Assembly (NCBI GenBank): GCA_964496035.1
Contig: CAZBXI010000002.1
Span: 26,054-81,857, forward strand
Direction of reading: 5' to 3'
DNA: 55,804 nt
DNA from: an uncultured Desulfurococcales archaeon
GTDB taxonomy: Archaea; Thermoproteota; Thermoprotei_A; EX4484-217-1
Of the stretch, positions 29,296-31,152 are shown one piece after another. The position numbers and the translations under genes were made by a program. The notes beneath the pieces are model-generated. The model was not told the DNA's origin. It made no database searches and saw only the letters and a list, made by a program, of their open reading frames with translations. Every line of letters begins with the position of its first letter. The first letter of the stretch is position 1.

Positions 29296-29754
29296 TTACT
29301 CGCTATAGCTTATTCTCTTTACGAACTTCATTTTAGATAGTGCCTTAAGCTTGACTATATTTTTCGGTATTATAACTTCATCTACGAAAACTATCGAATG
29401 TACTTTCTTGCTGAACGTTTCAAGGTCAACAGTATTGTCGAATATAAGTTTCTTAATATTCCTAAATCTCACCTTTCCTTCAACATCCTCTAAATCCTTC
29501 TTTGAAACTACTAGTTCATCTAAATCTCCAATAGTAATAGTTTTTAATGTTGTTTCCATACCCTCTCTTACCCTTTGAACTAATTCATAAGATCCTTCAG
29601 CTAATGATAGGAATACTCTAAGTGCTTCGTTAACTACTTCACCAACTGTTTCACCAATAGACTTAGCTAATGCCGAAGCCTTAGCATATAGTTCTTCATC
29701 AATATTTCTTATCGTAACAGTTTTCTTCTTAGGTTTCTCGGACATCCTTGTCAC
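29296..29754 (-). CDS. hypothetical protein with N-terminal ribbon-helix-helix-like segment
   Basis: 152 aa. KKTVTIRNIDEELYAKASALAKSIGETVGEVVNEALRVFL looks like a CopG/Arc-type RHH. The C-terminal domain is unassigned. Confidence 0.4.
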   Translation of the reverse strand: MTRMSEKPKKKTVTIRNIDEELYAKASALAKSIGETVGEVVNEALRVFLSLAEGSYELVQRVREGMETTLKTITIGDLDELVVSKKDLEDVEGKVRFRNIKKLIFDNTVDLETFSKKVHSIVFVDEVIIPKNIVKLKALSKMKFVKRISYSE

Positions 29755-29809
29755 CTATGTAATACTTGCAATACTAGAAATATAAGCTTTACTCCTATTA
29801 TTGAGAAAG

Positions 29810-29817
29810 TTTAAAAA
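29810..29817 (+). promoter_or_regulatory. candidate TATA box for the tRNA 5' part
   Basis: TTTAAAAA preceded by purine-rich AAAG. Its 3' end lies 30 nt upstream of tRNA position 1 (29848), which would give a short leader. Confidence 0.35.
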
Positions 29818-29871
29818 ATGAATAGTAAATAGTGTTTAAAATAGAGAAGCCGGGTCGTCTAGCGGTCAAGG

Positions 29872-30873
29872 ATGCGGGGCTTTGCGGACCGTCGGCTATC
29901 CTCTTCCTATCCCCCTTCTTTACATGAACATAGATTAGCAAGCAGAGAAACTATTCTTAAGAAAGTCAAGAGTATCTTGAAGGAATCCCTAAGAAATTAT
30001 AGGAATGACCTAAAAAATAGAACTTTTCTGCATAGTAAGAATTTTAAGACAGAATACGTGATAAATTCCTATAGTGGTTTAGCAAACATTATACATAATA
30101 TGATCAATGAAAGCATAAGATACACAGTAAATTCCATTATTCCCCATATACTCAATTTGTTGAGGCAGGGAAATTACAACCTATATGTGAAAACATGTAT
30201 GAAAACCATTAACTTTAAAATTAACGCAGACCGTTGCATATTGAGAATAGGATACTTTGACGGAAATATTATAATGGACATTCACTTTAAAAATTTAAAA
30301 ACGATCAAAATTAAGTCTGAAATTTCTGCAAAACCATGTAATTATGAGGCTTTCATAGGTTTCTTGCTTAGCGATGGAGCTATTAAGGGAAAGAACATAA
30401 GAATGCGTACAACAAAACATTGGCAAGCAGTATTGTGGATTTTAATAAATTCGCCAAACGTATTTAGCTTAAGGGTAGACTCAGTAACTGTTTCCACTAA
30501 AGGAGAGCTGAGACCAGCTTTGAATATTTCTAGTCCCAGGATCTTTGAAGTTACAACTAAAAGTTTGTTATTATTAAACAATCCTATCTCATGGTTTTTC
30601 TACATTCTAGGTGACGGATCTGTTGGTTATAGGAAAATAGAAATTTCATGTAGCCTAAACTACTTCGAAAAATTAGCTAATAAGCTTAAAGCGTTAGGCT
30701 ATAAACCTAAGCTAAGACCCGAGAAGAGATTAATTGTTCTGACTGGGAATTCTATGAGAAAATTCTCTGAATGGATAGTAGCAAACGTGATTAAATGTGG
30801 CTTAAATGAACCTCTTGAGCACTTAAAAGTAAGTAAATGGTTAGAAATGAAACATTATGCAATGATGAGGTAA
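29872..30873 (+). CDS. double-motif LAGLIDADG homing-endonuclease-like protein (maximal ORF; true start probably internal, e.g. TTG 29977, GTG 30058 or ATG 30100)
   Basis: Motif 1 is FIGFLLSDGAI (aa 161-171, nt 30352-30384). Motif 2 is FYILGDGSVGY (aa 243-253, nt 30598-30630). They are ~80 aa apart and both keep the D-G acidic position. The first 13-14 nt of the ORF lie in the tRNA 5' exon. Confidence 0.75.
   Translation: MRGFADRRLSSSYPPSLHEHRLASRETILKKVKSILKESLRNYRNDLKNRTFLHSKNFKTEYVINSYSGLANIIHNMINESIRYTVNSIIPHILNLLRQGNYNLYVKTCMKTINFKINADRCILRIGYFDGNIIMDIHFKNLKTIKIKSEISAKPCNYEAFIGFLLSDGAIKGKNIRMRTTKHWQAVLWILINSPNVFSLRVDSVTVSTKGELRPALNISSPRIFEVTTKSLLLLNNPISWFFYILGDGSVGYRKIEISCSLNYFEKLANKLKALGYKPKLRPEKRLIVLTGNSMRKFSEWIVANVIKCGLNEPLEHLKVSKWLEMKHYAMMR
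29882..29900 (+). repeat. left arm of the 19-bp inverted repeat closing the intervening sequence
   Basis: TTGCGGACCGTCGGCTATC, with 12 of 19 positions G/C. It includes anticodon nucleotides 34-36. Confidence 0.95.
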
Positions 30874-30877
30874 AGTA

Positions 30878-30885
30878 TTTATATA
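30878..30885 (+). promoter_or_regulatory. candidate internal TATA box in front of the tRNA 3' part
   Basis: TTTATATA is an exact TTTAWATA consensus preceded by AAAGTA. Its 3' end is 25 nt upstream of the first base (30910) of the complementary leader. Confidence 0.3.
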
Positions 30886-30909
30886 AGGTCAAAAGTACAA
30901 CTGATACAT

Positions 30910-30928
30910 GGTAGCCGACGGTCCGCAA
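30910..30928 (+). repeat. right arm of the 19-bp inverted repeat
   Basis: GGTAGCCGACGGTCCGCAA pairs with 29882-29900 through 18 Watson-Crick pairs and 1 G-U pair. Confidence 0.95.
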
Positions 30929-31152
30929 CCCGACTCTGGCGGGGGAACCGGAGAACCCCCGTGACCGGGGTTCGAATCCCCGCCCGGCTACCAACAATTA
31001 CCTATAGCACTACAATTACCGCTTAATTGCTGGAAGTTGCAGCGTAATTGAATTATTAATATGAGTTTTCGGTTTAATTATCATATTCTTCAATTTTGAA
31101 AAGCAATATTTAATTATCATGGCTTCTTATACTATGAAGGTAGGGATGAATA

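Follow-up and report, generated by a model that had tools for sequence, protein, structure and literature searches.

What kind of gene places the two halves of a glutamine transfer RNA (tRNA-Gln) more than a kilobase apart, with an open reading frame (ORF) in between? The question is raised by a stretch of 55,804 nucleotides, here called the window, from an uncultured Desulfurococcales archaeon (assembly GCA_964496035.1, contig CAZBXI010000002.1, positions 26,054 to 81,857). Positions 29848–29884 of the window read AGCCGGG-TC-GTCT-AGCGGTCAA-GGAT-G-CGGGG-CTTTG, that is, the acceptor 5′ strand, the D arm, the anticodon-stem 5′ strand and CUUUG; positions 30957–30993 read CCCCG-TGAC-CGGGG-TTCGAAT-CCCCG-CCCGGCT-A-CCA, which supplies the anticodon-stem 3′ strand, variable loop, T arm, acceptor 3′ strand, A73 and CCA. 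An earlier note made from the letters alone (the original prediction) had quoted both strings, which lie where it placed them, and had read them as a tRNA-Gln(UUG) gene with one 1070-nt intron after the anticodon. With introns of up to 3 kb allowed (-i0,3000), ARAGORN does find a 76-nt cloverleaf across 29848–30993 with 1070 nt removed; the quoted exons, which the original prediction had joined into a tRNA of 76 nt, total 74 nt and leave two loop bases unassigned. The splice register of ARAGORN in such long introns is arbitrary, and the anticodons that it reports ('tta' in the window, 'tct' elsewhere) are meaningless as anticodon calls. ARAGORN at its default settings and Rfam both come up without a tRNA anywhere in the window. 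We argue that the locus is probably a tRNA-Gln(CUG) gene with two bulge–helix–bulge (BHB) introns, the larger of which would encode a divergent endonuclease of the LAGLIDADG type.

Exons and introns of the tRNA-Gln locus

The comparison with related genomes that the original prediction had proposed recovers the same interrupted gene in several independent samples; as the exon halves are also present in 36 genomes, the interruption is not a product of chance. Five loci with homologous ORFs (the window, L001, L039, L041 and L043) share a common layout. Exon 1 ends at C32. On the 3′ side there follow, in this order, the 3′ strand of an intron helix, 4 nt complementary to C27–G30 (CCCG or CUCG), 2 nt, UCUGG, 16 or 21 nt, and C-CCCCG, the stretch of 16 or 21 nt terminating in GGAG or GGGG plus 2 nt. 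In L039 (contig JBPKTM010000001.1) the tRNA-Gln 5′ exon halts at C32 (...GCGGGGC/ACCGCCCACCG...), with no anticodon on that side, and L041 and L042 (both from JGI) and L043 (from NCBI) likewise have no anticodon-like sequence and no UUUG after C32. Because L039, L041 and L043 carry no anticodon there, only a reading with two introns and a CUG anticodon yields a tRNA from these loci.

By the same layout, the window locus is very probably a tRNA-Gln(CUG) gene with an intron of 1054 nt at position 32/33 and another of 16 nt at 37/38, separated by a micro-exon of 5 nt. The homologous loci thus replace the single intron after the anticodon and, together with the base at position 37 discussed below, overturn the anticodon UUG, leaving CUG as the most likely one. 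The 'UUUG' that had been taken for exon after C32 becomes the first four bases of the large intron, three of which are paired in a 19-bp helix. The spliced product is 76 nt long and is called tRNA-Gln(ctg) by ARAGORN. Its 7-nt anticodon loop, CUCUGGC, has U33 and a purine at 37; it is identical to the loop of contiguous metagenomic tRNA-Gln(CUG) genes and differs from the CUUUGGC of 36 related tRNA-Gln(UUG) genes in base 34 alone.

An exact search, with one genome per species, located the 5′-exon string at 36 loci, all of them in Desulfurococcales, Pyrodictiaceae or related Thermoproteota. Intronless UUG alleles read CTTTG-GC-CCCCG and give a mature loop CUUUGGC, with G37 and C38. Short-intron UUG alleles read CTTTG-G / intron ...(G/A)(G/A)AG-NN / C-CCCCG and form a strict BHB, in which C32–U35 pair with four intron bases and each 3-nt bulge is cut between its second and third bases. 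A metagenome scan for contiguous GGYCAAGGATGCGGGGCTCTGG added at least 120 tRNA-Gln(CUG) genes (...GCGGGGC-TCTGG...), including 34 without an intron and about 40 with an intron of 13–58 nt at 37/38, typically ending in GGGGAGAA/C. In these genes C32 and U33 are contiguous; therefore, empty-site alleles of the 32/33 intron are common, and a small 37/38 intron is ordinary for tRNA-Gln(CUG).

Folding of the joined window junctions to the minimum free energy (MFE) pairs C27–G30 with CCCG, leaves G31, C32 and the first intron base U as a bulge, and continues into a helix of 19 bp (coordinates in Table 1). The BHB of the large intron thus consists of a 4-bp helix, CGGG/CCCG, between the 3-nt bulges GC/U and AC/U, plus the 19-bp inner helix; in L039, L041 and L043 the central helix is CGGG/CUCG. 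The BHB of the small intron has the strict form; L002 has C in place of the A at 30955, the last position of this intron in the window. Cleavage sites were placed behind the second nucleotide of each bulge, the canonical rule, for which the canonical 37/38 introns found in relatives served as calibration. When the four distinct junction sequences were compared as equal-length mini-constructs, standard pairs were found in 68 of 68 cells, versus 25–49% in slid-partner controls. Five pairs have changed on both sides, and the observed covariation score was reached by none of 500 shuffles, a result drawn from four junction sequences of which three are close relatives. A clean double compensation, CA/TG to TG/CA, separates L039 (helix strands CCGCCCACCG/CGGTGGGCGG) from L041 (CCGCCTGCCG/CGGCAGGCGG). 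The predicted structure and the compensatory changes argue for an archaeal BHB intron, spliced by proteins. A group I or group II ribozyme intron was rejected for want of any Rfam signal, no such family being found in 29700–31150 at E ≤ 10 or in the whole window at the gathering threshold.

We propose the following course of events. The host, a hyperthermophilic archaeon of Desulfurococcales-like character, would carry this tRNA-Gln(CUG) gene in its chromosome. Intron 1 would be taken out first, by the tRNA splicing endonuclease and the RtcB ligase, because its BHB occupies the anticodon-stem strand; the anticodon stem could then form and so create the canonical BHB of intron 2. The protein of ~300–340 aa that intron 1 encodes in the sense of the tRNA would be a homing endonuclease of the LAGLIDADG type, with two motifs but very divergent. 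By cutting DNA at 32/33, it may once have carried, or may still carry, the intron into tRNA-Gln(CUG) genes that lack it. The candidate target is the intronless allele GGATGCGGGGC/TCTGG, found in more than 120 metagenome loci, and the intronless sequence is GGATGCGGGGCTCTGG.... In some sister strains the endonuclease gene would already be decaying, with the splicing signals kept.

Table 1. Parts of the interrupted tRNA-Gln locus (window positions) and ORFs antisense to tRNA-Gln in the 37/38 introns of other loci (L numbers).
Feature	Position	Strand	Basis and remarks
TATA-box-like TTTAAAAAA	29809–29817	+	~31–39 nt upstream of the tRNA 5′ end; candidate archaeal promoter, predicted from sequence
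Exon 1	29848–29880	+	Acceptor 5′ strand, D arm, anticodon-stem 5′ strand, to C32; same end in 5/5 homologous loci
333-codon open frame	29872–30873	+	Part homologous to P0004 from codon 57 (~30040)
Central 4-bp helix, 5′ strand (C27–G30)	29875–29878	+	Pairs with 30929–30932; MFE fold and homologous loci
Bulge 1 (G31, C32 / U)	29879–29881	+	Predicted 5′ cleavage 29880/29881
Large intron, BHB type, ORF-bearing, 1054 nt	29881–30934	+	Position 32/33 (predicted); geometry, covariation, no group I/II ribozyme, empty-site alleles
Intron helix, 5′ strand, 19 bp	29882–29900	+	Pairs with 30910–30928; contains the 'UUG' earlier taken as anticodon
LAGLIDADG-like motif 1, FIGFLLSDGAI	30352–30384	+	Asp kept in family members covering the region
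LAGLIDADG-like motif 2, WFFYILGDGSV	30592–30624	+	L-G-D-G invariant in alignment A3; site of the sub-threshold Pfam LAGLIDADG_3 matches
Intron helix, 3′ strand	30910–30928	+	MFE fold, homologous loci, covariation
Central helix, 3′ strand, CCCG	30929–30932	+	Homologous loci, covariation
Bulge 2 (A, C / U33)	30933–30935	+	Predicted 3′ cleavage 30934/30935; second base C, A or U by locus, subsequent UCUGG invariant
Micro-exon UCUGG, 5 nt	30935–30939	+	tRNA positions 33–37 (predicted): U33, anticodon CUG, G37
Small canonical 37/38 intron, 16 nt	30940–30955	+	Predicted helix C32-U33-C34-U35 / GGAG (30950–30953); bulges GG/C and AA/C; ending of GGAG-AA/C type, as in relatives
Exon 3	30956–30993	+	C38, anticodon-stem 3′ strand, variable loop, T arm, acceptor 3′ strand, A73, encoded CCA 30991–30993
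L015-type ORF	L015:2151–2895	−	Frameshifted
L015-type ORF	L045:1348–2151	−	210 aa, intact
L015-type ORF	L047:1344–2164	−	194 aa, intact
L015-type ORF	L172:1202–2004	−	Cultured Pyrodictium abyssi, complete genome AP028907.1; tRNA-Gln(UUG) at ~1,414,000; intron ~725 nt; annotated as hypothetical / DOD-type endonuclease protein
L015-type ORFs	L056, L099, L131, L141, L168	antisense to tRNA	219 aa in L168
L015-type remnant	L031, 271-nt intron	antisense to tRNA	Reduced copy

The open reading frame of the large intron

The 333-codon ORF that the original prediction had placed between the exons is real, but it begins inside exon 1, where its ATG is A24-U25-G26 of the tRNA. Gene callers therefore start the protein within the tRNA exon, as in P0003. 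The window and L002 copies differ by 34 synonymous and 20 non-synonymous changes (synonymous divergence, dS, 0.30; ratio of non-synonymous to synonymous divergence, dN/dS, 0.13), and by this measure the ORF is a real gene under purifying selection in some copies. P0004, a 404-aa protein encoded in L039, is 31% identical (E = 3e-42). Its homology starts at window codon 57, and the protein is therefore longer than the 224-aa version called in L002.

Translation has three candidate starts. The ATG in exon 1, at 29872, could serve only while the precursor is unspliced; a TTG is at 29977; and an ATG at 30908, replaced by ACG in L002, joins the frame of the ORF only if a circularised intron is read through its junction. 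Across that junction (30934 joined to 29881) the translation would read MVADGPQPD/FADRR..., the ATG lying one codon past the TGA stop at 30902–30904, and a start there would leave just 34 non-coding nucleotides in the circle. The homologous ORF of L039 has its own ATG after GGAGG, within the intron.

The family is small. The database of 5.8 billion proteins holds only near-identical relatives of the window protein, and word-indexed searches return two to three family members; a profile search run exhaustively over 1.84 billion cluster representatives adds four distant relatives, for six proteins in total, and JGI metagenome contigs and viral contigs gave no further members. Homologs occupy the same intron position in other genomes. 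The most distant one, P0007 (488 aa, L044:458–1924), stands alone between genes in AT-rich DNA, and no tRNA halves flank it.

Several copies of the ORF are broken. In the syntenic sister strains L049, L050 and L051, a 1-nt deletion in an A/T run (at about window position 30294) splits the frame, and motif 2 reads ILGGG instead of ILGDG, an Asp-to-Gly change; the exons and RNA junction elements are identical to those of the window. L001 has a different frameshift, near the ORF 5′ end. Decay of the ORF beside conserved RNA junctions would fit the typical life cycle of a homing-endonuclease gene. L002 shares with the window the ORF from about position 30143, the 3′ junction and the downstream flank; upstream of these it has an unrelated GC-rich segment of 200 nt with no Rfam match (L002:1–260), which could be a rearrangement within the intron, another insertion or an assembly chimera.

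The two LAGLIDADG motifs of the original prediction hold up as a resemblance at the level of motifs and fall short of a significant Pfam match. Two ..GxLxxDG motifs, FIGFLLSDG and FFYILGDG, start 80 residues apart, and the Asp of each is kept in the family members that cover it; as motif-level evidence, this agrees with the acidic residue and Gly at intervals of ~80–100 residues that characterize two-motif proteins. Profile matches were sought with the Pfam LAGLIDADG families PF00961, PF03161, PF14528 and PF05204. LAGLIDADG_3 is the only Pfam family to recur across members, always on motif 2, with E-values of 0.2, 0.06, 7.7e-4 and 0.01 in four of them, all sub-threshold; the best, P0004 (20.1 bits, E = 7.7e-4), is still under the Pfam cut-off. 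In the AlphaFold model, which is of low confidence overall, the C-terminal half shows the alpha-beta-beta-alpha-beta-beta-alpha order expected of LAGLIDADG proteins at a predicted local distance difference test (pLDDT) score of 57–82. Taken together, these features suggest that the ORF is likely to encode a divergent LAGLIDADG-type endonuclease.

Weighing the alternatives

The alternative nearest to the original prediction is a tRNA-Gln(UUG) gene with one intron of ~1070 nt just after the anticodon, exon 1 running to 29884/29885 and exon 2 starting at 30955/30956. The continuation of exon 1, CUUUG, is exactly that of the 36 tRNA-Gln(UUG) genes; C32-U-U-U could pair with GGAG (30950–30953), followed by the canonical bulge AA/C38 in a 3′ context like that of the relatives; and ARAGORN accepts both spliced versions as tRNA-Gln(ttg). 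Such a tRNA, however, would have C37 if cut by the canonical rule (C at 29885) or A37 if joined as first proposed, whereas G37 is found in 36 of 36 related UUG genes. Moreover, U34–G36 would be buried in the 19-bp helix, with the 5′ site in no recognisable bulge; the 26-nt stretch 30924–30949 would be left without explanation; and the scheme is inapplicable to L039, L041 and L043, which have no UUUG after C32 and all have UCUGG downstream. We consider a UUG gene very unlikely. The mature junctions predicted by the two anticodon assignments differ, being ...GGGGCUUUG(C/A)CCCCCG for UUG and ...GGGGC-UCUGG-CCCCCG for CUG. Two further arrangements were discarded: a strict single-intron BHB at 37/38, which yields C37 and leaves 26 nt unaccounted for, and a large intron at 36/37 nested within a 23-nt 37/38 intron, which restores G37 but for which no BHB can be drawn, and which was replaced by the 32/33 model. 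A dead gene, disrupted by insertion of a mobile element and left unspliced while a separate intact copy does the work, would explain why the ORF is broken in some strains and why standard tRNA finders overlook the locus, and a second copy may exist, as only 55.8 kb of the genome are in view. Yet among strains that differ by up to ~14% per 100 nt (15/109) in the intron 5′ region and have frameshifted ORFs, conservation is 100% in the exons and the micro-exon, in both splice contexts, in the 19-bp helix and in the small intron. The helix covaries between distant loci, the arrangement is kept in at least four divergent lineages, and the TATA-like box and the encoded CCA are still present, all of which makes a dead gene highly improbable.

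The identity of the protein is a separate matter, since the architecture would be the same if the ORF encoded a DNA- or RNA-binding protein, a maturase-like protein or a domesticated relic that merely resembles LAGLIDADG enzymes. The window protein has no significant LAGLIDADG profile or structure match, its family has an N-terminal region of 48–160 aa with no counterpart in classical enzymes, motif 1 is SDE instead of SDG in P0004 and P0006, and the distant homolog P0007 resides outside any tRNA. This account leaves aside the G...DG pattern with a conserved Asp in both motifs at 80-residue spacing, the recurrence of LAGLIDADG_3, and no other Pfam family, on motif 2, and the predicted topology of the C-terminal domain, which appears to fit. 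It also leaves aside the residence in an intron, the presence/absence polymorphism of that intron and the decay at strain level, which are typical of homing-endonuclease genes. We regard a protein other than an endonuclease as the less likely outcome, though one to be taken seriously.

Several points weigh against our reading of the locus as two BHB introns in a tRNA-Gln(CUG) gene, the larger with an endonuclease gene. Both splice junctions are predicted, from sequence and fold, and the comparative set comprises just four different junctions, of which three are close relatives. The BHB of the large intron has no outer exon-side helix (only G26–C34 could pair) and is thus a relaxed motif; relaxed BHBs are expected at non-canonical positions in Crenarchaeota, where the heterotetrameric endonuclease accepts such substrates (PMC3241643, PMC5829648). 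The intron of the window starts with UUUG, reproducing the tRNA-Gln(UUG) context through G36, for which we have no account beyond the pairing of UUG with CAA, which lengthens the helix. None of the candidate starts of the window ORF has an obvious ribosome-binding site. The window protein has no significant Pfam match (LAGLIDADG_3 E-values 0.14–0.2, 12–13 bits versus a cut-off of 22.5); phmmer and profile searches of the PDB come back empty, Foldseek against the PDB gives no match at E ≤ 0.001, and hhalign against a true LAGLIDADG family returns a probability of 4.6%. AlphaFold pLDDT is low overall, 38 from the single sequence and 46 from seven sequences.

Related introns, neighbouring genes and known systems

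A second family of proteins provides a precedent for the endonuclease reading of the window ORF, in that clear LAGLIDADG genes reside in tRNA-Gln introns of the same clade. The UUG locus L015 has a canonical 37/38 intron of 667 nt whose opposite strand encodes a two-motif LAGLIDADG protein with one frameshift (Pfam Hom_end E = 2.5e-10, LAGLIDADG_3 E = 9e-9). This protein has 13 relatives in the 5.8-billion-protein database, most with precomputed Hom_end and/or LAGLIDADG_3 assignments, and only generic, distant LAGLIDADG matches among viral proteins. Every context examined is a tRNA-Gln gene, of the UUG or the CUG isoacceptor, with a long 37/38 intron (~270–1180 nt) and the ORF antisense to the tRNA (Table 1). 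The two families share a clade, a host tRNA family and an endonuclease-type ORF, and in both a long helix closes the long BHB intron; unlike the window ORF, the L015-type ORFs are clear LAGLIDADG genes by Pfam, occupy the canonical 37/38 position in both UUG and CUG genes and run antisense. The family of the window ORF never occurs in these 37/38 introns and has no detectable sequence relationship to the L015 type beyond the motif.

The same searches turned up tRNA-Gln 5′ halves that end at G37 and are followed by a GC-rich 'trailer' and then by host genes (FEN-1, V-ATPase subunit I and others). They are of the UUG type in L012, L022, L023, L025, L026 and L030 and of the CUG type in L078, L093, L098, L124, L126, L140, L161, L164 and others; there is no 3′ half within 1.3–3 kb of them, and no complementary 3′ half in the loci compared. 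We list them as candidate split (trans-spliced) tRNA-Gln genes of Desulfurococcales.

The window has a G+C content of 36.7%. The interrupted gene lies among chromosomal genes of a hyperthermophile, with mannosyl-3-phosphoglycerate synthase, an HD-domain protein and a LysE transporter encoded upstream, and ferredoxin and a membrane-bound hydrogenase / complex-I-like operon downstream. A 152-aa ORF (29296–29754, minus strand) without a Pfam match adjoins the tRNA promoter region on its upstream side; L049 and L050 have it in the corresponding position, conserved as 150 aa. In L039-type genomes the interrupted tRNA-Gln adjoins a tRNA-Ser(CGA) gene with a 16–17-nt intron (L039:2773–2866, L041:4856–4948, L043:2489–2579), located 5 nt upstream in L039; the window has no such neighbour. 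Just downstream of the tRNA-Gln of L039 are a GC-rich (62–70%), probably structured segment (L039:4400–4550) and a Cas12f1-like/TnpB-type gene (L039:4882–6117), which together may be another mobile element next to the tRNA.

In the published accounts consulted, archaeal tRNA introns are short and non-coding; their spread and the origin of split tRNA genes are matters of hypothesis, with intron 'transposition' and viral or mobile elements put forward as explanations. At least two unrelated forms of kilobase, protein-coding BHB intron in tRNA-Gln, together with empty sites and decaying copies, would offer a concrete and testable mechanism of mobility. A more speculative extension, which we find possible but doubtful, is that these are active mobile tRNA introns, that homing is how archaeal tRNA genes gain BHB introns, that rearrangement within long introns produced the split tRNA-Gln genes of the same clade, and that the window protein is translated from the circularised intron, from the ATG at 30908. 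Pyrodictium abyssi, a carrier, is cultured, and both splicing and homing are thus directly testable. There is also a practical side: standard tRNA finders miss such genes entirely, so the affected genomes seem to lack a tRNA-Gln isoacceptor.

Among known systems, I-DmoI in the 23S ribosomal RNA (rRNA) of Desulfurococcus mobilis and I-PorI belong to endonuclease-carrying archaeal rRNA introns. BHB introns with endonuclease genes are well documented for archaeal rRNA genes, both 16S, as in Thermoproteales, and 23S (PMC4496867, PMC6125680). The window intron resembles them in the BHB at its junctions, its kilobase size, a sense ORF that fills most of the intron, the archaeal order, the presence/absence polymorphism and the decay of the ORF. 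It differs in its tRNA host, in a BHB drawn partly from the anticodon stem, in the second intron 5 nt away and in an ORF far more divergent than the rRNA-intron enzymes, failing Pfam thresholds. To our knowledge, the introns of multi-intron tRNA genes in Crenarchaeota measure only tens of nucleotides to ~100 nt. Such genes, with introns at non-canonical positions, are known in Crenarchaeota, in Thermoproteales (PMC8450103, PMC4033280), and where their introns are closely spaced, one must go before the BHB of the other can form (tRNAscan-SE 2.0, PMC8450103). The window gene has likewise two BHB introns, one of them non-canonical with a relaxed BHB, whose closeness would impose an order of removal; in contrast, its large intron is 1054 nt long and protein-coding, its middle exon has just 5 nt, and ORFs go unmentioned in the surveys of crenarchaeal introns that were consulted.

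The break at 32/33 has a counterpart in Nanoarchaeum equitans, whose tRNA-Gln(UUG) is split and joined at this position (PMC3218864). The tRNA family, the position and a long GC-rich helix beside the BHB that unites the pieces are the same; in the window the pieces are on one transcript, predicted to be spliced in cis, with an ORF between them, whereas the halves in N. equitans are separate genes. Outside the archaea, I-Ssp6803I is known from a cyanobacterial tRNA-fMet. Bacteria have group I introns in the anticodon loops of tRNA genes, and homing-endonuclease genes are present in some of these (review, PMC3984707). They resemble the window intron, for which mobility and an endonuclease are predicted, in being mobile, endonuclease-bearing introns of the anticodon loop; they are self-splicing ribozymes, whereas the window intron has archaeal BHB junctions and no detectable group I or II core. 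In the literature, of which our coverage is incomplete, we found no protein-coding archaeal tRNA intron, endonuclease genes being attributed there to rRNA introns only. The original prediction's view that an endonuclease-carrying insert in an archaeal tRNA had gone undescribed thus stands for a kilobase, ORF-bearing intron of BHB type and is less secure for the LAGLIDADG assignment. Read as two BHB introns in a tRNA-Gln(CUG) gene, the locus extends an element already known from archaea, the BHB intron with an endonuclease gene, to a new class of host gene; it is unusual in its 1-kb size, its 5-nt micro-exon and its highly divergent protein.

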